From: an uncultured delta proteobacterium
GTDB taxonomy: Bacteria > Desulfobacterota > RBG-13-43-22
Assembly: GCA_963802945.1 (NCBI GenBank)
Contig: CAWDKY010000015.1
Coordinates: forward strand, 288,001 to 352,000
Length of the DNA stretch: 64,000 nucleotides
Direction of reading: 5' to 3'
A program made the translations under genes and the position numbers. Below are positions 45,729 to 59,480 of the stretch, one piece after another (positions within the stretch are counted from its first letter, which is position 1; each line of letters begins with the position of its first letter). The notes beneath the pieces are model-generated. The model worked only from the letters and a program-made list of their open reading frames with translations, was not told the DNA's origin and made no database searches.

Positions 45729-45787
45729 AATTTTTACTTACTCAAACCTCTTTACAATTATTTTTCCCGATGGTATATCTTAATAGT

Positions 45788-45864
45788 CGGGACGTGGCTC
45801 AGTCTGGTAGAGCACAGCGTTCGGGACGCTGGGGTCGCTGGTTCAAATCCAGTCGTCCCGACCA
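45788..45864 (+). tRNA. tRNA-Pro(CGG)
   Basis: CGGGACG/CGTCCCG acceptor stem, anticodon arm CAGCG-TTCGGGA-CGCTG, GGTTCAAATCC T-loop, encoded CCA. Confidence 0.97.
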
Positions 45865-46313
45865 TTCTCCGCCCTTATTGATCATCAAAACAATCTCTGG
45901 CCGGTGTTGGACAAGCGGTTGGCTTATGAGCGGGTGGCCAGGCACGGCCAGATGGCGGAAATGGGAACCGGCCGTTTCTGAATATTCCCTTGCCTCTTTG
46001 ATCGTCAAAGAGCTTCTTTTTTTTCTGTTTTTCTCCTTGACTTTCATTTCATCCCTATTTTATATTCTTAACATCAATAAAAGATCCTACGTCTTGGTTC
46101 CGGAAAAGCCAAAGGACCGAAACGTTTATCCACAAGGGAAGAAAGGAGGAAGAAGATCTCTCTATCACCTCGTCCTTGGTCGTTCTAAAGTGACCTGCCA
46201 AAAAAGAGGTAATCCTGCTAAAGCATTTCGATCCCAACGGTAGCTTAATAGGAACAAGACATCATGTTAAAATGGGTTTTTAAGGTGTAATTGAAAAACA
46301 AGAGGAGGAATCT

Positions 46314-52042: not shown

Positions 52043-52083
52043 GACCCACTATTCGTTTCTGATGGTATATATACTTATGAAGA

Positions 52084-52699
52084 TTATCGTTTCAATTCTT
52101 TACCCTGAATACGTGCGGAACTGAGAACCTGACGATTAGCAGTAAAAACTTGGATTCCTGGGATAGTAGCGTAATCGCCATCGTCGGTGATGATTTGGAT
52201 GACGCCATGCTTGGCCATTGTTTCAAGGATGAAAAGGTCGTATCCATCTACAAGCTGGGTCTGAAGACGGTTTAAGGCGGCATCCGTTGTCACCTCGTCG
52301 ATCGACATGGGTAATGGTGCAGCCAAGGATTTTACCTGTCCCCAGGAGGCCTGGATTTCTGAAACGATACGTGCGTGATCGGCTGGTAAGTTATGACGAT
52401 ATTCCTTTGTAGGAATGGAACCATTGATTTGCACATAAATTTGGCGTTCAGTCCTCTCGATCAGGTGAGAAAGTTCCGCCAACTGATAGCCCCGACCAAT
52501 AGAGCCGGGCTCCCGATATAAGTGCCTGGTTTACATAGGTCGGGTAATCAGAGAGTTGGTAAGGAATCGCGGACTGACTGGCATTCGGATAAGTCATCCA
52601 GTACCAGACATTGGAATCAACTAGGAAAATGTCAGTGTTTTGTGGAGAATCCTTCTGAATATCGACCACATCTGACTGGATATTATAATTAATTGCCAT
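52084..52699 (-). CDS. PIN-domain ribonuclease (one frameshift near 52485)
   Basis: FLVDSNVW, LAEL, DGYD and ITDDGDY acidic residues split across ORFs 52448-52699 and 52084-52482. Confidence 0.8.
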
Positions 52700-53049
52700 T
52701 ATTCCGGTCCCATGGCCTGCTGTTCGAGGATGTCATCCACGATTTTACGATAGTCCCTATCGCCGTGATATTTAGCGGCATTCTCGATCACCCGTTCGAC
52801 GACCAGCTTGCCGGTTTCATTCAGATTCTCGATCTGGAGCAAACGGTGCAGGTCGGACTCCCGCATATCCTTCAACAGTTGCCCGATGGCAAAGTTAAAG
52901 AATGGCGATGCGAACTGAGTTACCCCGTTAAAATCGAGCGTGACCGTCTCACCATTTTTTAGTGGACCGTGTATCTCATCGTAAATCTTCTGCCCGTCTT
53001 CCTTGATGATACAGCGTGGGCCGATCTTGTCCTTGATTGATAGTTTCAT
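52699..53049 (-). CDS. STAS-like (DUF4325) protein
   Basis: G..IY..I...L..G..VTLDFNGV...ASPFFN.AIGQL. Confidence 0.8.
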   Translation of the reverse strand: MKLSIKDKIGPRCIIKEDGQKIYDEIHGPLKNGETVTLDFNGVTQFASPFFNFAIGQLLKDMRESDLHRLLQIENLNETGKLVVERVIENAAKYHGDRDYRKIVDDILEQQAMGPE

Positions 53050-53063
53050 GATCCTGTTCTCCT

Positions 53064-53951
53064 TTAGAACGGCGGTTCAACTTCATCACGGAACCGGTAA
53101 AGATTTTCGTCACAACGCAGGGTGATATGCACCATCGTACCTTCAAATGAAATTTCCCGATTCTCGTAGCGCTCGCCATCTTTATCGATAATGGCATAGC
53201 CGTCGTTGCTGTAAACTTCCAGCTTGCCTTGATTGGTTCGTATAAATTCCTTCAGCAGATCGAGGCCAATGCCCCGCGCAACACCTTCGGTACTGGTGCT
53301 CTTTCCCCTTGTAAAAGCCCACCGCAAACAGGCCTCAGCCGATAAGTCCTGAGCGCGAGGATCGTTACTTAAAAAATTACGAATCTTTGCCGGAATCCCT
53401 TGGCCAAAATCTACAACCGAAAGGATGAGATTATTTTTCCGCCAAAAGTGCTGACCACACGAAAAAACACCTATTTGGGTACCGCTATGCTCGAAGGCGT
53501 TATCATATATCTCCCACATTCTTTCACTGATTGCATCTCGGAGCCTTTCGCTGATATGCATCCAGCCCTTGCCAATCCAGTTGTAAGTCAGGTAATCCAT
53601 AATCCCGTTCATATTGAGTGACTTGTCTTCCCGATACGGAATTGAGTTGCCATCCCAAGCGGATGACGGAAAACCGAAACTACCGGCAAATCCGTTCTGT
53701 CTTAAGTTCATCATAATGGCATTATTCTGAATTGAATTCCAATCAAAAATCGCTGTTCCAAATCTTGATTCGATCAAACGAGCCAAACCACCTAAAAAGG
53801 CAATGGCATTTGGACGAAGGAATTGGCAGTTAGAAAAAGTGAATACAAAATCCTCAAAATAAGTATCAGCCTGACTCCAGATATTAAAAAGCCGCAGGAA
53901 ATCTCTGGCTTCATCGTTCAAGGTGGGAATCTCGATGACCTTTGGCGACAT
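53064..53951 (-). CDS. GHKL/HATPase_c protein, RsbW-like kinase, with a STAS-like N-terminal region
   Basis: N-box EIYDNAFEHS, G1 VVDFGQGIP, G2 GKSTS...RGIGL, C-terminal EGT; no His-phosphoacceptor box or TM helices seen. Confidence 0.78.
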   Translation of the reverse strand: MSPKVIEIPTLNDEARDFLRLFNIWSQADTYFEDFVFTFSNCQFLRPNAIAFLGGLARLIESRFGTAIFDWNSIQNNAIMMNLRQNGFAGSFGFPSSAWDGNSIPYREDKSLNMNGIMDYLTYNWIGKGWMHISERLRDAISERMWEIYDNAFEHSGTQIGVFSCGQHFWRKNNLILSVVDFGQGIPAKIRNFLSNDPRAQDLSAEACLRWAFTRGKSTSTEGVARGIGLDLLKEFIRTNQGKLEVYSNDGYAIIDKDGERYENREISFEGTMVHITLRCDENLYRFRDEVEPPF

Positions 53952-53953
53952 TC

Positions 53954-55063
53954 CTAAAGTTCTCCACGAAATGCTTTGGCGATCAAAGCCGCAGAAAAGG
54001 CCTTTATATCTTCTTCGATTTTCGCTGCTTCCAATTGGATCAGCTGCCGCCGTTTGACAATTTCAGAAAAACGTTTTTGGGCCTCGTATTCTGGCACTGG
54101 GACCAAAATATTTTCCAACTTCTTCAGACCAAGGGTCCGGTTTCTCCCTGCTGATCCTGGGGAGGCCACGCGAATGTCTTCTATTCCATGCTCACTGAGA
54201 AAATGGTGGCAAAGGAACTCGGATGTGGCCTTTTTCTCATGGGGCACATAGGTAATGAAACGATGGGAACCAACCCGGCCTTGATCTTCTGACTTGGCAA
54301 CGGCAATTGCTTTTTCCCAGGCAAAAACATTGTTAAAAACCAAATCCCCCTCATGAATACGGTAGATGCGTTTGTTGCCGATCTGTTTGCCTGTCAAAAC
54401 CGGCTTCTTGAAAGTGCCTTTGCCGAAACTGCGTATCCCCATCTCCTCATACTCTTGGTCGGGCTTTGTTTTGATCGCTCGGCGTACCAAACAAGCAAGT
54501 TCTTTTAAAGGCATCCAGTCAGCTCCCTCGATCATTTTACTATAAAGTGCCTGAAGCAGAATATCCAATTCTGTTTCCCTTTCAGCGGCTGCTTTCTGTG
54601 CTTCCTCAGCGCGACGGGTCAGTGCCTCGATATACGCGACGATCCGGCGTTGCTCCTTGATGTTATCAGGGATTGGAATTGCGATGGAGTAAAGAAGATC
54701 TCTCTTAATTCCGGGTTTTGGTCCTTGGGCGTGGATACCAAGCTGAAGATTGGTCAAACAATAGAATAACCACTTCGGCTCAAGATCTTTGGGATATTCT
54801 TCGATATAGAATGATGTATCAATCGGCCAGCAAGGGGTACTGGAGAAGTTTACCTCACCAACAGAGCCTTTCCGACCAATAACGATCGTTGGTGACTTTG
54901 TTAGACTTTCTGAGTGGAAACCGATGATCCCATTTGAACCGTATACTGGTAGTTTCCCATTCGGATCACGTTGCTTTGCTGAAAGACCCTTTCCATAATT
55001 GATTTTCACTAATTTTTCGACGAGCTTAAGCGGGAAAGGAGATGATTCAAATTGTGAATTCAT
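53954..55063 (-). CDS. hsdS: Type I R-M specificity subunit
   Basis: Two TRDs (PVYGSNG/IVIGRKGSVG; GDLVFN) and conserved IPIP...EQRRIV and VPVP..EAQ...LIAKAFRGEL. Confidence 0.93.
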   Translation of the reverse strand: MNSQFESSPFPLKLVEKLVKINYGKGLSAKQRDPNGKLPVYGSNGIIGFHSESLTKSPTIVIGRKGSVGEVNFSSTPCWPIDTSFYIEEYPKDLEPKWLFYCLTNLQLGIHAQGPKPGIKRDLLYSIAIPIPDNIKEQRRIVAYIEALTRRAEEAQKAAAERETELDILLQALYSKMIEGADWMPLKELACLVRRAIKTKPDQEYEEMGIRSFGKGTFKKPVLTGKQIGNKRIYRIHEGDLVFNNVFAWEKAIAVAKSEDQGRVGSHRFITYVPHEKKATSEFLCHHFLSEHGIEDIRVASPGSAGRNRTLGLKKLENILVPVPEYEAQKRFSEIVKRRQLIQLEAAKIEEDIKAFSAALIAKAFRGEL

Positions 55064-56589
55064 TCCCCATTCCCCCCCGCAAGCAGTTTCTGCATCTCCT
55101 GAATGAGCTTGAGAATCCGTTCTTCTTTGGCCGCGACGGAAGAGAGGATTTCTTGCGGTTCCATGTGTTCGATGGTTTCCGCTTCAATCAAACCGAGGCT
55201 GGAAAGGGTCATATTATAATTGTTGGCTATAATCTTCTGGGCTGGGACCAGCCAGGCACGGCCCTCTTCGGCTTTTCGCTTGGGCCACATGCGCAGCAAG
55301 TCGGGAAAGTCATTGCGGTACTGCGATCCAAACTTACGGGCTTTAGAAAGCGAGGAGCCGTCTCCGTCCACCTTGAAGAACCAGACATTCTTAGTGGGTT
55401 TTCCGGTATTTCGAAAGATAAAGAAACAGGTCGGGTTGGGGGTGTAGGGTTCAAACATTCCCTTGGGGAGGATCACCACAGCTTGGAGATCGAATTCTCT
55501 GAGAAGCCGTTCCTTAACAGTGACATGACTGCCCGTGTCGCCGAATAGAATGCCGTTGGGGAAGATAATTCCCGCTGTGCCGCCCCGGTCCAAACAACGC
55601 AGGGCATGGGCCAGAAAGAGGACATATTTATCCCCTTTTTCGATACGAAGCGACCGCTTGGCGTCACCACGCGATCCTGAGAACGGCGGATTCTCCAGGA
55701 TATAATCAAATTTGATCTCATCCCACTTATCCTCGCTACCGCAGATGGAGTCCCGCTGTACTAAAGGACATTGGTCGAATCCGTGGAGCATGGCATTCAT
55801 GGCGGCCATGCGCAGGATATCCTGGTCGCCGTCGAAACCATAGAAAGCGCCTGTCTGTAAAAAATTCCACTGGGCGCGGGAGAGTTTATCACCAATACCT
55901 ATCTTTCGGGTGGTTCCATCAGGAGAGACCTTCTCACGGATAAATTCCGGGCTGGTATTGGCCAGCAAAATGTACTCGTAAGCGGCAATTAAAAATCCAC
56001 CTGAGCCGCAGGCCGGATCGCAGACCGTGCCGTCCATCTTTGGATCAACCATCTGGGTGATGACCCGAATCAGATGGCGTGGGGTTCGGAATTGGGCCGC
56101 CTTCTTCTGCCCTCCCAATTCACTGGCCAGGTATTCGAACAGATCGCCCTTGATATCGGCATCCATCCCGAGAAAGGAGATGGGAGCAATGATATCCACT
56201 GCCCGCCGTAAGGTCGCACCGGTGGGGATGACAATGGCGGCGTTTCGAAAAATGGCCCGTGCGCCCTGGGATAATTTGGGGTGTCGGGCAAGCTTTGGCA
56301 ATGTGTCTCGTAGGGTGCGGAGCATGGCTTCATTGTCCGGATTGGCAGTGAGCAAGCTCCAGCGTAAAGGATCGTAGTTCAGTTCTTCGGGGCCATCCTT
56401 GAACTTGCCGAATAAAGAACGGTGGTTGCCGTTGCCTGCTTCCTTCTGCTCGTAATCCATTTCTTCAAGCATTTTAAGGAACAGGAGATAGGAAATCTGG
56501 GTTACATAGGTAATGGGGTTGGTGACATTGCTATCCCACATGACCTTACAAAGCGCTTTGAGCGTGTTCTGAATCTGTCCGCTGTCCAT
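55060..56589 (-). CDS. hsdM: Type I R-M N6-adenine methyltransferase
   Basis: QISYLLFLK, GDLFEY, QFRTPRH, DPACGSGGFL, NPPF, GILF. Confidence 0.95.
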   Translation of the reverse strand: MDSGQIQNTLKALCKVMWDSNVTNPITYVTQISYLLFLKMLEEMDYEQKEAGNGNHRSLFGKFKDGPEELNYDPLRWSLLTANPDNEAMLRTLRDTLPKLARHPKLSQGARAIFRNAAIVIPTGATLRRAVDIIAPISFLGMDADIKGDLFEYLASELGGQKKAAQFRTPRHLIRVITQMVDPKMDGTVCDPACGSGGFLIAAYEYILLANTSPEFIREKVSPDGTTRKIGIGDKLSRAQWNFLQTGAFYGFDGDQDILRMAAMNAMLHGFDQCPLVQRDSICGSEDKWDEIKFDYILENPPFSGSRGDAKRSLRIEKGDKYVLFLAHALRCLDRGGTAGIIFPNGILFGDTGSHVTVKERLLREFDLQAVVILPKGMFEPYTPNPTCFFIFRNTGKPTKNVWFFKVDGDGSSLSKARKFGSQYRNDFPDLLRMWPKRKAEEGRAWLVPAQKIIANNYNMTLSSLGLIEAETIEHMEPQEILSSVAAKEERILKLIQEMQKLLAGGNGE

Positions 56590-56611
56590 ATTTCAGTTAT
56601 TCCCTTATTGT

Positions 56612-58957
56612 TTACGCCGCCAGAAGGGTATTGAGCTCATCGATCATCTGTAGAAGTTTTTCTTTGCCGAAAAGTTGCTCCATACGCGTCAACCCGCCCC
56701 AGAGAGAAAATGGAGGTTGACTGAAGAGACGCATGGTAATCTCTTCACCGGTCATGACCCGTGCCTTAAGCAGTCGGAGCATTTGGGCCTGACCCGGATC
56801 AATACTGCTGGAATGTTCGGTCACCCAGGTATTAAAGGCCTTTTCAATGCGTTCCTCTCTCGTCAGAAACCGTTTCAATCCAAGAGCGACCCGGATGAAG
56901 TCGGTCAACGATCCGGTAGGCTGCTCAAAGGCCTGTCGTAAAGTGTCTTCGTTGAAATAGTGGGTGGGAGAATTCAAACGATGAGCCAGGTCTTCCCATT
57001 CTTCGTCAGCGAGTTCCTCGCCCCGGAAGATCTTCTCCACGGTGGGATCGGTCCGCCTGAATTCGACGACCTTCTTTTCCCATTCTTCACGATAGGTTTT
57101 CCGGTCTATGGCCAATCCTTCGGGGCCAACCAGAATGATTTCGCGGGCACGGATTTCATCCTCTAGTGATCCTTCGGCGAGTAATAAAAATTCACGGGAG
57201 CCGCCTTCGGGATATTTGGTTAAAGGTTGGGCTTGTTGTGCATCACCTTCTACAATTTCGCCTGTTTCGGTTGTCCTGGAACCTGGAGCGGCACCGACCA
57301 GTTTTGGCTTTTGATAAGCCTCACCAGGATCGTTGAAGCGCTTGGAGTTGCCGACAAAATCATAAATGATAAATTCATTCTTCCCGATCTTGGGACAAAG
57401 GCGGCTGCCACGGCCTCGCATCTGAGCGTATTTGATCGGCGACAGAGTGGGGCGCAACATGATCAGATTTTCAATGTCTTTCTGGTCATAACCGGTATCC
57501 AGCATGTCCACCGATACGGCGATCAGAGGGAGCGGATCATACTTGAATTCATCGATTACCGGTTTGGGATTGCCGTTATTGGTATAGCAGGTAATTTTTT
57601 TAGCAAAATCCTGCCGGACCTGGGCTGGGGAACGGTTGATTTGTCCGGCAATGCGCAGACAATCCTCATCAGTTAATAATCGGTTGAACAAACGGGCCAG
57701 GACTGAGGCCTGTTTCTCAGAGACGGAAAAGACGACGGTTTTGCGTGGACGTTCCCGGATACGCTCGGAATCTGCCGAATAATACTCTTGAAGGATGGTT
57801 ATCAATCGGTCTTCGGATTCCACATCACGTCCCCAGGCACCGGGTTTGATCTCTTCGCCTTCCCACTCCGCGCCTTCATAGGTCAAAACACTTTCAGCAT
57901 GATAAATTCGGTATTTGCTCAGATAACCTTCATTAATCCCTTTCTGGATGCCATATTCAAAGGTAGGACGGCCTTCCTTCCTGACGGCATCCCAACAGTC
58001 GAAAAAGATATAGGTATTACGAACCAGACGGCGTTCATGTTCACTGATGTACTGTAGTTCTCCGGGATTCGGCGTAGCGGTCAAGCCGATGTGGATGGCA
58101 TCGAAATGTCCAAGAGTAGTTCGGTGTGTATTATAAATAGAACGGTGGCATTCGTCAGTTACGACGAGATCAAAGTAACCATGTCCAAAACCGTTAGCAC
58201 CGAGTTGGGAAGCAATGGTGTCGAGAGTGCCGACAACAATCTGACCTTCGAGGCTATGCTTTCCCCCATAGAGAATGACGGTAGGCCAGTCGGAAAGGTA
58301 TTCATCGAAAGTCTCTTTGGCTTGTTTGGCCAGTTCGATGCGGTCAACCAGGAAAAGGACACGCGAGATGATGGCCGCCTGAAACCAACGCTTCATGAGC
58401 ATGGCGATGGTCAGGGTCTTTCCGGTTCCGGTGGCCATTTCAAAAAGCATACGCCTGCGACCGGCAATCAAGGCCTCATCGGCTTTTTGTAAACAGTTAA
58501 TCTGGTAGGGACGGGCCTCAATTTCTTCCCCCTTGAAACTAAACCGATGAGGAAATGGCAGGAGTTCAAGACATTGCTTAATATCACCCTTGCGATGCAG
58601 TTTAATATTCGCCCTTCGCTCCAGGTCGGCCTGACCCGGGAAACCCATAATCGGGCGAGCGTCGCCGTCCGCATAATCCCAGAAATAATGATCTTGCCCA
58701 TTGCTGAGGATGACGAAGGGAGCGGAGAGCGATTGCGCATAATCACGTGCCTGTTCCTTGGCCGAGTATGGATCGATGGAAAAACGCTTTGCTTCAATGA
58801 CAGCCAGAGGCCGCGTACGAGAATCCCTCAGAAGGTAGTCTGCGCGGCCATCGGCGGATGGTTCTTCCGTAGATACCTGAGCTTTGTTGGTGATCTTCCA
58901 GGAGGCGGCCTCCAGTAGCTTGTCAATCACCATTCTGGCATCGGCTTCAGTAGGCAT
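56612..58957 (-). CDS. hsdR: Type I R-M restriction subunit (EcoAI/EcoEI-like)
   Basis: ADY.L...VIEAK nuclease motif, MATGTGKT, DECHRS, GLTATP, MLDTGYD, QMRGRGSR. Confidence 0.95.
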   Translation of the reverse strand: MPTEADARMVIDKLLEAASWKITNKAQVSTEEPSADGRADYLLRDSRTRPLAVIEAKRFSIDPYSAKEQARDYAQSLSAPFVILSNGQDHYFWDYADGDARPIMGFPGQADLERRANIKLHRKGDIKQCLELLPFPHRFSFKGEEIEARPYQINCLQKADEALIAGRRRMLFEMATGTGKTLTIAMLMKRWFQAAIISRVLFLVDRIELAKQAKETFDEYLSDWPTVILYGGKHSLEGQIVVGTLDTIASQLGANGFGHGYFDLVVTDECHRSIYNTHRTTLGHFDAIHIGLTATPNPGELQYISEHERRLVRNTYIFFDCWDAVRKEGRPTFEYGIQKGINEGYLSKYRIYHAESVLTYEGAEWEGEEIKPGAWGRDVESEDRLITILQEYYSADSERIRERPRKTVVFSVSEKQASVLARLFNRLLTDEDCLRIAGQINRSPAQVRQDFAKKITCYTNNGNPKPVIDEFKYDPLPLIAVSVDMLDTGYDQKDIENLIMLRPTLSPIKYAQMRGRGSRLCPKIGKNEFIIYDFVGNSKRFNDPGEAYQKPKLVGAAPGSRTTETGEIVEGDAQQAQPLTKYPEGGSREFLLLAEGSLEDEIRAREIILVGPEGLAIDRKTYREEWEKKVVEFRRTDPTVEKIFRGEELADEEWEDLAHRLNSPTHYFNEDTLRQAFEQPTGSLTDFIRVALGLKRFLTREERIEKAFNTWVTEHSSSIDPGQAQMLRLLKARVMTGEEITMRLFSQPPFSLWGGLTRMEQLFGKEKLLQMIDELNTLLAA

Positions 58958-59021
58958 CGGTATTTTTAGCTTTCCTTGATGTTAAATGACCTGGAGATTA
59001 GGTTGAAGGAATCGTGGTCAT

Positions 59022-59047: not shown

Positions 59048-59480
59048 TCTTAATCTGTGAACTTGATGTTGATTCTGAATCAAATTATTTTCTACCCTTG
59101 TCCGATTGTTATTGATTTAATCCAAATATTCTACTCCCTTTTATCACACACCCCAAACAAAAACCCCATCTCCTATTAGAAAAAATGGGGGCTTGTCGGA
59201 CTGCTTTATGTAAGGCCTTTCAAGGTGGGATGTTGTCGGAATCCGGAAGAATTATACCAACCTCTTGAAAAATAATCAAATTGTTCTATTATCCAGAATA
59301 AAGTCTAGGATGGAGAAAAGAGCAGATGGATAAATGGATAAATGGAGGGCAAGAGAGATTGAATTAAAAACACTCCCTGATGACCAATGGAAATGGGGTT
59401 GCAAAAGATTTTTTTACTTGATATGAAAGAAAACGAATAATGAATTCAATCTGAAAAGTTTCAGAAAAGGAGGATATGGG

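Follow-up and report, generated by a model that had tools for sequence, protein, structure and literature searches.

The closest described counterpart of the locus analyzed here is VapKSC, an operon that was named and tested in Escherichia sp. E4736 by Chambers, Rani, Min, Villa and Corbett (EMBO J 2026, PMC13373217; PDB 9z7o). In that work, the toxicity of VapC is abolished by D28A and is countered by VapS, its antitoxin; rescue by VapS is lost when its C-terminus is removed or with the S48E substitution, and a phosphomimetic at Ser48 of VapS leads to the release of VapC. The Ser48 position in the STAS domain of VapS is absolutely conserved as Ser or Thr, and VapK pairs a CapK-like STAS domain with a GHKL kinase domain, has no HTH and carries a conserved aromatic residue, F54, at its predicted ssDNA site. 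The crystal complex of VapS and VapC has 2:2 stoichiometry, and VapS leaves the active-site Mg2+ in place. The Escherichia operon alone confers about 2-log protection against one phage, Bas42, which is lost with VapC D28A, VapS S48A or VapK F54A (PMC13373217). Neither VapS phosphorylation nor VapK activation by ssDNA was demonstrated directly, because VapK is insoluble; the evidence that ssDNA from DNA damage activates the kinase is biochemical for the related CapK and, for VapK, consists of a model and one mutant (PMC13373217).

Several other systems share parts of this architecture. In CapK-CapS, too, a STAS-containing GHKL kinase targets a conserved Ser of a STAS partner for phosphorylation, but an HTH is present at the N-terminus of CapK, and CapS, which has a winged-helix DNA-binding domain, is the repressor of an operon located downstream; CapK-CapS is located directly 3' of restriction-modification (R-M) genes in 88 of 443 cases (PMC13373217). 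The coupling of PIN and DUF4325 genes was catalogued as early as 2017, as the PIN.4 subfamily (Matelska et al., PMC5499597). As in the VapBC type II toxin-antitoxin systems and PIN.4, a VapC-type PIN toxin in VapKSC is held by a protein antitoxin, but this antitoxin is a STAS protein, and release is described as occurring via phosphorylation rather than via antitoxin degradation (PMC13373217). In the SpoIIAB-SpoIIAA and RsbW-RsbV pairs, the substrate of the GHKL Ser kinase is a single STAS domain that has a conserved Ser; the kinase there holds a sigma factor, and a PP2C phosphatase resets the STAS protein. Finally, PrrC, a single ATPase-nuclease that is held by the R-M complex of the EcoprrI type I locus, provides an RNase back-up layer for restriction.

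The hsdRMS operon and the genes at its 3' end

The window, i.e. the entire 64,000-nucleotide stretch of DNA that was analyzed, very probably contains an intact hsdRMS operon with a VapKSC module at its 3' end, one that would act as the Escherichia system does, has a frameshifted vapC and belongs to a mobile block. The genes hsdR, hsdM and hsdS, followed by those for a GHKL ATPase, a DUF4325/STAS protein and a PIN protein (in two frames), are all co-oriented on the minus strand. The first gene, hsdR (56612..58957), encodes an apparently complete type I restriction subunit of 781 amino acids with the Pfam domains HSDR_N, ResIII, Helicase_C and EcoEI_R_C and a PADLOC match to REase_I (E 5.6e-63). 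It is followed by hsdM (55060..56589), for a type I methyltransferase of 509 amino acids (Pfam HsdM_N and N6_Mtase; PADLOC MTase_I, E 1e-108), and hsdS (53954..55063), for a specificity subunit of 369 amino acids with two target-recognition stretches (Pfam Methylase_S; PADLOC Specificity_I, E 4.7e-58). The three subunits together have the composition that defines type I R-M, namely nuclease and helicase in HsdR, an N6-adenine methyltransferase in HsdM and two target-recognition domains in HsdS. The EcoEI_R_C domain, together with a sub-threshold match of HsdR to the NCBIfam EcoAI/FtnUII family (231 bits, cutoff 550), suggests an EcoAI/EcoEI-like branch. At the protein level, HsdR is 81–95.5% identical to the HsdR of five related loci (L005, L008, L009, L014 and L015; numbers of this type denote loci that carry relatives of the module).

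The genes are tightly packed, and both the coordinates and the junctions agree with the initial annotation, which had described six co-oriented genes: hsdM and hsdS overlap as ATGA, the hsdS stop codon and the kinase start codon are separated by 2 nt (TAG-GA-ATG), the gap between the kinase and STAS genes is 14 nt, and the STAS stop and PIN start overlap by 1 nt (TAATG). Scans for promoters and terminators gave counts not above those in shuffled sequence and say nothing firm on transcription. A promoter-like site, TTGATT-17-TATAAT with TG, lies 5' of hsdR (59251..59279, minus strand) and is a consensus match only; the region has 15 such sites compared with 10.8 +/- 3.4 in shuffles, and with a count so near the shuffle level, the hsdR site is weak evidence. 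The terminator scan detected no terminator-like site within the hsdRMS-vapKSC block.

Probable kinase, STAS antitoxin and split PIN toxin

The STAS protein is the most readily recognized member of the trio. The vapS-like gene (52699..53049, minus strand) encodes 116 amino acids with a Pfam DUF4325 domain (E 6.9e-18), and the protein matches chain A of PDB 9z7o, ‘Escherichia VapS’, over residues 2–113 (E 6.2e-35), with 58 of the 112 aligned residues identical (~52%). Ser48, within FASPFFN, is Ser in all 34 aligned homologues and bears the same number as the residue that was mutated in Escherichia VapS; the initial annotation had singled out this Ser as the likely phosphorylation site, which fits its having been the tested residue (PMC13373217). 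The C-terminal region that VapS needs according to the paper, residues 94–116 (PMC13373217), is matched by a short C-terminal helix region in the window protein that aligns through residue 113.

The gene for a vapK-like Ser/Thr kinase (53064..53951, minus strand) encodes 295 amino acids, with an N-terminal STAS-like domain at approximately residues 1–125 and a C-terminal GHKL domain at approximately 135–280 (Pfam HATPase_c, residues 142–278, E 1.6e-7). The N-box, G1 and G2 motifs (E147, N151, D181, G183, G227 and G229) are invariant in 27 of 27 homologues, and none of these 27 has an invariant His among the N-terminal 130 residues, bearing out the earlier description of a HATPase with GHKL boxes and no His-box. 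A histidine-kinase reading was rejected, given the lack of an invariant His outside the ATP-binding domain and an N-terminal domain that appears STAS-like and is not a helical dimerization domain. The AlphaFold2 model of the whole kinase (pLDDT 85, pTM 0.86) retrieved GHKL domains only in a fold search, the best PDB matches being the CheA P4 and WalK ATP-binding domains. When the N-terminal domain was modeled separately (pLDDT 88), the nearest folds were the STAS domains of RsbV, SpoIIAA and SulP (probability up to 0.98, best E 0.13), so that its STAS-like character is suggested by a fold ranking with weak E-values. Position 44 is occupied by F or W in all 27 homologues, and F44 is our guess at the counterpart of F54 in Escherichia VapK. 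The probable assignment of this protein to VapK thus rests on domain make-up and gene order.

Taken as a set, the three proteins resemble Escherichia VapKSC in the kinase-STAS-PIN gene order, in a kinase that appears to combine STAS-like and GHKL domains and has no HTH detectable by Pfam, in a 116-amino acid VapS with Ser48 and a C-terminal helix region, and in Asp28 of VapC (PMC13373217). Unlike the Escherichia operon, the module abuts the 3' end of a type I R-M operon, its vapC is frameshifted, and its VapS is only ~52% identical. The trio is best described as a new example of a named system, with little that is new in kind. The initial annotation had already proposed that the kinase, STAS and PIN genes form one antiphage module with the PIN RNase as output, which is the arrangement reported for Escherichia; its statement that no characterized system has this layout is superseded by the naming of VapKSC in 2026 and the listing of PIN-DUF4325 coupling in 2017 (PMC13373217, PMC5499597).

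Two related arrangements were considered and rejected. A CapK-CapS pair does not fit, as Pfam finds HATPase_c and DUF4325 only, with no HTH or winged HTH, the 116-amino acid STAS protein terminates in a helix of the VapS type, and it is a PIN toxin that this protein is paired with. An anti-sigma partner switch of the SpoIIAB-SpoIIAA or RsbW-RsbV type does not fit either: scanning of the 7 locus proteins and 14 flanking proteins found no sigma-factor or PP2C domain, in line with the earlier remark that a sigma factor is missing, and the window kinase differs from those of the classical pairs in having a STAS-like domain of its own and an RNase as the output. The defense-system search that had been recommended added little: PADLOC-DB v2.0.0 (2023) predates the naming of VapKSC and contains no VapS or VapC model, and the kinase yielded a weak DrmA match only (E 5.4e-6), which leaves the assignment without support from an independent classifier. 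NCBIfam returned nothing useful for the kinase, STAS and PIN proteins.

By analogy with the Escherichia system, VapS would bind the PIN RNase VapC and hold it inactive; VapK would phosphorylate Ser48 of VapS, upon which VapS would release VapC; and the freed VapC would cut RNA and stop growth, so that phage infection is aborted. The trigger would be ssDNA from DNA damage or phage infection, a step that for VapK is deduced even in the original work (PMC13373217). For the present locus, homology, domains, residues and conserved gene order are observed directly, whereas toxicity, the antitoxin role and phosphorylation would carry over from the published experiments (PMC13373217). The initial annotation had envisaged a partner switch that responds to a phage signal. 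Of this, the Ser-gated release of the PIN protein holds, but a strict switch does not, given that in the published data the STAS protein binds the toxin directly as an antitoxin, with no kinase that swaps two partners (PMC13373217).

The PIN gene is split in the window. Its N-terminal part (52484..52699, minus strand) comprises 72 in-frame codons, including that for Asp28, and matches residues 5–73 of chain C of PDB 9z7o, ‘Escherichia VapC’ (E 7.3e-9); the C-terminal part (52084..52482, minus strand), 132 codons in a shifted frame, matches residues 72–200 of the same chain (E 1.5e-32). The frame is broken by an extra base (52483..52483, minus strand), which lies between the Ser72 codon and the next Leu, outside any homopolymer run, and which corresponds to a one-column gap in six of six relatives in the DNA alignment, so the frameshift that had been noted is indeed present in the given sequence. 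The N-terminal ORF (52448–52699) leaves the frame after 52484 and stops at 52448. The two halves adjoin in a single frame in 18 of the 18 relatives in which both were matched. The broken reading frame is a property of the individual copy in the window and not of the family. Neither piece alone matches a Pfam domain; the VapC proteins of intact relatives match PIN (PF01850) with E-values of ~1e-6 to 1e-11. The acidic residues of the PIN domain are retained, as had been claimed: Asp28, which bears the number of the residue mutated in Escherichia VapC, the Glu of LAELSH, the two Asp of VDGYDLF and the two conserved Asp of ITDDGDY (which has three in all) each occur in every one of 32 homologues.

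The in-frame product of vapC here would be the 72-residue N-terminal fragment only. If the extra base is not a sequencing error, it probably inactivates the toxin arm, and the module may be dead in this genome. Inactivating mutations are common in self-toxic genes, and self-toxic effectors are frequently encountered in broken form, as this frameshift illustrates. We give somewhat less than an even chance to the possibility that the module is decaying in this genome, in which case the frameshift would be a genuine inactivating mutation and the kinase and antitoxin would remain as orphans downstream of a functional R-M system. Such decay is favored by the position of the extra base outside a homopolymer, unlike the usual homopolymer-type sequencing slip, and by the existence of broken relatives, namely L012, with a second vapC frame break and a fragmented vapK, L017, with a truncated vapK, and L020, with vapK in two pieces. 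These relatives, however, are all metagenome bins of uncertain quality, and a single-base assembly error is possible in the window itself, where neither vapK nor vapS is broken and no stop interrupts either half of vapC in its own frame, so that any decay would have to be very recent.

Distribution and mobility of the block

Of 34 related loci, which come from many phyla, 32 have the kinase-STAS-PIN gene order; the remaining two are truncated by contig ends. At least one defense gene is located nearby in 18 of the 34 loci, type I R-M genes in 9, and other DNA-modification systems (type II, IIG, III, BREX PglX and DUF499/DUF1156) in 7 more. The source is not Escherichia: neither the block (megablast) nor vapKSC (blastn) had a match in 5,426 E. 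coli genomes, and the nearest relatives are in bins of Desulfobacterales and Thiosymbion and in other environmental bins. Among plasmids, the kinase query retrieved four records, one of which, Deinococcus gobiensis P5, carries the full triad, and the vapC half used as a query retrieved none. Among phages, 10 records contain kinase-like genes. The two of these that were examined, Javan172 and Burkholderia vB_E188, encode a kinase and a STAS protein beside an integrase and no PIN protein; these pairs were rejected as VapKSC and are relatives of the kinase-STAS pair.

At the DNA level, the related loci resemble the window only at positions 52046–58977, and the flanks differ; the hsdRMS-vapKSC block has the behavior of a cassette that moves horizontally. 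Its borders show short imperfect repeats at chance level only, no clear G+C step and no tRNA, the sole tRNA being 6 kb away. The mobility of the block raises the question of whether VapKSC is mainly an addiction module that keeps the hsdRMS cassette in place, with phage defense as a side effect. That the block moves as a unit between differing flanks is compatible with this scenario, and both the coupling of PIN toxins to type I R-M subunits and the stabilization of defense islands by toxin-antitoxin genes have been discussed (Matelska et al. 2017, PMC5499597). We nevertheless consider it improbable: the published phage protection requires kinase, Ser and nuclease alike (PMC13373217), and simple addiction has no need of a kinase input.

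The module and the adjacent restriction-modification system

Setting addiction aside and returning to VapKSC as a phage defense module, its position beside hsdS can be read in two ways. In one, the module would guard the R-M system and fire when a phage anti-restriction protein of the Ocr/ArdA type blocks it, as PrrC does with EcoprrI; the initial annotation had suggested such release upon inhibition of R-M. What points this way is the position beside hsdS and the PrrC precedent, in which an RNase toxin is likewise encoded at a type I R-M locus. The resemblance ends there, as PrrC has no sequence relation to VapKSC, and no PrrC-related domain is detected by Pfam in the kinase, STAS or PIN protein, whereas VapKSC has a kinase and an antitoxin of its own and mostly occurs without R-M. 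The triad is kept in 32 of 34 relatives, but type I genes are nearby in only 9. Furthermore, the Escherichia operon protects on its own, and the published model relies on kinase activation by ssDNA and involves no R-M partner (PMC13373217), so that the suggested release upon inhibition finds no support. We regard the guard role as very improbable.

In the other reading, which is possible although rather unlikely, the two systems would be functionally coupled, with the type I enzyme as the upstream sensor: restriction followed by nuclease processing would generate ssDNA that turns VapK on. VapKSC would then form a second, abortive layer, an arrangement that extends the explanation preferred here, an hsdRMS operon with a VapKSC module that acts as in Escherichia, rather than excluding it. 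The 2-nt hsdS-vapK junction, the lack of terminator-like sites within the block, the identical junction in four related loci (L005, L014, L015 and L018) and the presence of type I R-M genes in the flanks of 9 loci and of other DNA-modification systems in 7 more are all consistent with coupling. Defense genes generally cluster in islands, however, and adjacency to R-M genes is therefore weak evidence. VapKSC does not need R-M, since no R-M gene is nearby in 10 or more loci whose contigs reach at least 9 kb (e.g. L011, L020, L023 and L031). In addition, L005, L008, L009, L014, L015 and L018 share the hsdRM lineage of the window and may represent one ancestral event, and the Dsr2 and QatABCD systems stand between hsd and vapK in L008 and L009. 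For CapK-CapS, with its frequent position directly 3' of R-M, the same idea has been put forward (PMC13373217).

A stronger form of coupling, which we consider more doubtful still, is that hsdRMS-vapKSC would be a wired two-layer unit, in which ssDNA from type I cutting and translocation on invading DNA would activate VapK and the RNase would fire only when engaged restriction fails. The recurrence of vapKSC behind at least six kinds of DNA-modification systems (type I, II, IIG, III, BREX PglX and DUF499/DUF1156) would then reflect wiring and not island clustering. Across the 34 loci, vapKSC is repeatedly found behind DNA modification-based defenses, and in the locus described here, a clean natural case, a conserved 2-nt junction links vapKSC to type I R-M genes; with this natural cassette and the recurrence, a feed of restriction products into the kinase becomes an idea open to direct test.

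A type I restriction-modification operon ending in VapKSC

Window positions 52084–58957 hold six co-oriented minus-strand genes (ORF map), the layout proposed in the initial annotation: hsdR (56612–58957, 781 aa), hsdM (55060–56589, 509 aa), hsdS (53954–55063, 369 aa), a vapK-like gene for a GHKL ATPase (53064–53951, 295 aa), a vapS-like gene for a DUF4325/STAS protein (52699–53049, 116 aa) and a vapC-like PIN gene in two frames (52448–52699 and 52084–52482, ORFs of 83 and 132 aa). The tight packing reported there is likewise found in the sequence: hsdM and hsdS share an ATGA overlap, 2 nt lie between hsdS and the kinase gene (TAG-GA-ATG) and the STAS stop overlaps the PIN start as TAATG. Pfam, PADLOC and NCBIfam concur on a complete type I restriction-modification (R-M) system of the EcoAI/EcoEI-like branch, and the genes flanking the block belong to ordinary metabolism (acyl-CoA dehydrogenases, short-chain dehydrogenase, FMN reductase, thiolase). 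Between a promoter-like site (59251–59279) and the hsdR start (58957) lies a terminator-like hairpin (59164–59190, minus strand; 11 pairs, then a T run) that could be a leader element or a chance occurrence. The window has a single tRNA gene, for tRNA-Pro (CGG; 45788–45864), 6 kb from the cassette; a 157-aa ORF overlapping it (45770–46243) matches nothing in Pfam and is likely to be spurious.

The three genes at the end of the block form a further member of the VapKSC family. Chambers et al. (EMBO J 2026, PMC13373217; preprint 10.64898/2026.02.02.703251) defined this family by a CapK-like kinase that combines STAS and GHKL domains (VapK), a STAS protein that carries a short region at its C-terminus (VapS) and a VapC-like PIN nuclease (VapC). 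PDB sequence searches match the STAS protein to chain A of 9z7o, ‘Escherichia VapS’ (E 6.2e-35, residues 2–113; 58 identities counted in 112 aligned residues), and the N- and C-terminal PIN pieces to residues 5–73 (E 7.3e-9) and 72–200 (E 1.5e-32) of chain C, ‘Escherichia VapC’. Ser48 of VapS and Asp28 of VapC, both mutated in the Escherichia system by Chambers et al., carry the same numbers in the window. The layout, for which the initial annotation knew of no characterised system, is that of VapKSC as named in PMC13373217; the core of the proposed kinase-STAS-PIN mechanism was right but is already published. Literature searches found the name ‘VapKSC’ only in that paper and its preprint, and ‘DUF4325’ in three papers, none of them with experiments on that family; the coupling of PIN and DUF4325 genes had been catalogued earlier by Matelska et al. 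(2017, PMC5499597), who also describe type I R-M subunits to which PIN nucleases are coupled. All that sets the locus apart is that it is tightly fused to a type I operon and that its toxin gene is broken.

Kinase make-up and conservation of the module

A collection of species-representative genomes was scanned once, the query being a VapK alignment that combined the window with a Deinococcus plasmid copy; 157 stretches matched, of which 35 were confirmed, yielding 34 loci (L005–L038; 27–74% identity). These were annotated by tblastn with the window proteins (with an extra tblastn for L035), ORF maps and Pfam, the last run on 338 of the 410 mapped ORFs, that is, all except the known kinase and STAS ORFs and those farthest from the triad. 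The K-S-C order is kept in 32 loci, and in the other two (L016, L021) the contig ends inside the module. The nearest cassettes come from Desulfobacterales-like, Thiosymbion, Chlorobium and Nitrospirae bins; a search for the cassette in E. coli genomes gave no match, and the Deinococcus gobiensis plasmid has the order HTH-K-S-PIN. VapS Ser48, the serine (ASPFFN) originally placed at about the site phosphorylated in anti-anti-sigma factors, is conserved in 34/34 homologues, and the acidic residues that the PIN protein was said to retain (D28, the Glu of LAELSH, both Asp of VDGYDLF and two conserved Asp of ITDDGDY) are each present in 32/32.

Among 27 aligned VapK homologues, the GHKL residues of the N-box (E147, N151), G1 (D181, G183) and G2 (G227, G229) are all invariant, and the first 130 residues contain no invariant His, in agreement with the boxes and the missing His-box of the initial annotation. 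In the PDB, the AlphaFold2 model built from this alignment (pLDDT 85, pTM 0.86) has ATP-binding domains as its neighbours, those of CheA and WalK and of further GHKL proteins. When residues 1–127 are modelled separately (pLDDT 88), the nearest folds are those of RsbV and SpoIIAA, further anti-sigma antagonists and the STAS domains of SulP proteins, with probabilities up to 0.98 and target-normalised TM-scores up to 0.72, but the best E is 0.13 and none of the matches reaches E ≤0.001. The STAS-like fold of the N-domain, taken with the GHKL motifs and fold, matches the STAS + GHKL make-up described for VapK in PMC13373217, with modest statistical support for the STAS half. All 27 homologues (27/27) have F or W at position 44, which may correspond to F54 of Escherichia VapK.

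Several loci depart from a single triad. L036 (Caldilineaceae) carries two vapKSC copies 9.5 kb apart (L036:499–2126 and L036:10001–11487), surrounded by type I hsdR and hsdS, HEC-01 and IetAS genes. Just upstream of vapK in L033, a short ORF (L033:9753–9998) weakly matches the start of VapS (residues 2–44, E 4e-4, tblastn) and could be what is left of a second STAS gene. Kinase-STAS pairs with no PIN gene occur in Streptococcus phage Javan172 (L003:2884–4162), Burkholderia phage vB_E188 (L004:2575–3782) and a Hymenobacter plasmid (L002:6566–7864); their STAS proteins have no annotated DNA-binding domain, and both phage pairs adjoin an integrase. In a table of a Francisella prophage, a similar protein of 293 aa precedes a DUF4325 protein of 112 aa (PMC7924643).

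Predicted mechanism and the frameshift in vapC

According to Chambers et al. (PMC13373217), Escherichia VapC is toxic and its D28A mutant is not; VapS neutralises VapC, an activity that requires the VapS C-terminus and is abolished by S48E; in the 2:2 complex of the two proteins, S48 is buried at the interface; and the roughly 2-log protection against phage Bas42 is gone in D28A, S48A and VapK F54A. For the window, homology, domains, residues, gene order and conservation are shown; it is highly probable that the module belongs to the same family and works by the same mechanism. VapS would neutralise the VapC RNase, as its homologue does, single-stranded DNA would activate VapK, and VapK would phosphorylate VapS, the last two steps being derived even for Escherichia by analogy with CapK, for which both were demonstrated in vitro (PMC13373217). 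Possibly the cassette has a role in addiction, which would leave the kinase unexplained.

The two VapC matches join at Ser71/Leu72 of Escherichia VapC (Ser72/Leu in the window), and DNA alignment with six relatives places one extra base at window 52483, outside any homopolymer run, which may be a sequencing error or a real mutation. The halves abut in one frame in all 18 relatives in which both are matched; in L012, vapC is broken at another point. As sequenced, the in-frame VapC has 72 residues, including D28, and is missing the other catalytic residues; the odds that this genome makes a working toxin are roughly even.

Defence neighbours and the mosaic cassette

Within flanks from 8 kb upstream to 6.5 kb downstream of the vapK start (Pfam and PADLOC on 49 selected ORFs), type I R-M genes accompany 9 of the 34 loci (L005, L008, L009, L013, L014, L015, L018, L033, L036). 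Another seven have other DNA-modification systems (BREX PglX in L026; type III in L029 and L038; type II in L034; type IIG in L035; a DUF499-DUF3780-DUF1156 methyltransferase in L022 and L024), two have other defence genes only (Dsr2 in L006; SoFic and PDC-S02 in L007), and no defence gene was found in the flanks of 16, eight of which are contigs shorter than 10 kb. A defence gene of any kind thus lies near 18/34 loci. Chambers et al. (PMC13373217) count 103 of 289 vapKSC operons (36%) that have an immune gene no more than 10 kb away, and place 88 of 443 CapK-CapS pairs directly downstream of R-M; their Dataset EV3 may already list the R-M neighbours of vapKSC. The trigger suggested originally, a PrrC-like guard that releases the toxin when the R-M enzyme is inhibited, finds no support: most relatives have no type I genes, and the Escherichia operon tested in PMC13373217 worked alone. 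A wired coupling of R-M to VapK is possible.

Similarity of the window to all related loci is confined to 52046–58977 (blastn, whole window), so the block is a cassette whose surroundings differ between genomes. The junction of hsdS stop, 2 nt and vapK start is common to five genomes (the window, L005, L014, L015, L018). In the same hsdRM lineage, Dsr2 (L008) and QatABCD (L009) are inserted between hsd and vapK. HsdR and HsdM of L015 are the closest to those of the window (95.5% and 94% protein, 90.6% DNA identity), yet its VapK is only 59% and its VapS 38% identical; VapS of L018 is 40% identical, and L005–L013 show 79–91% for VapS and 81–86% for HsdR. The cassette is a mosaic in its vapKS part (window 52699–53951), which suggests that vapKS types are exchanged within one hsd lineage or that the kinase-antitoxin pair evolves fast.

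Dsr2 (SIR2) lies directly upstream of vapK in L008:6066–10004 and L006:9–2951 (PADLOC E 0 and 2e-250); in L008, it sits between hsdM (a 695-aa ORF) and vapK, with no separate hsdS seen among the mapped ORFs by Pfam. L009:5132–9986 contains a complete QatABCD between hsdS and vapKSC (PADLOC E 3e-146 to 9e-65), and a YhcG-type nuclease (PDC-S02) and a 23S-rRNA-IVP protein are encoded between its hsdM and hsdS. In L015, two tandem ORFs for a group II intron reverse transcriptase/maturase (L015:5701–6993 and L015:7533–8825), which score identically in Pfam, separate hsdM from hsdS. In Pseudanabaena (L022:6171–16828, L024:6159–16816), vapKSC, an M78-peptidase gene and one unknown gene are embedded in the DUF499-DUF3780-DUF1156 system, between DUF3780 and the DUF1156 methyltransferase.
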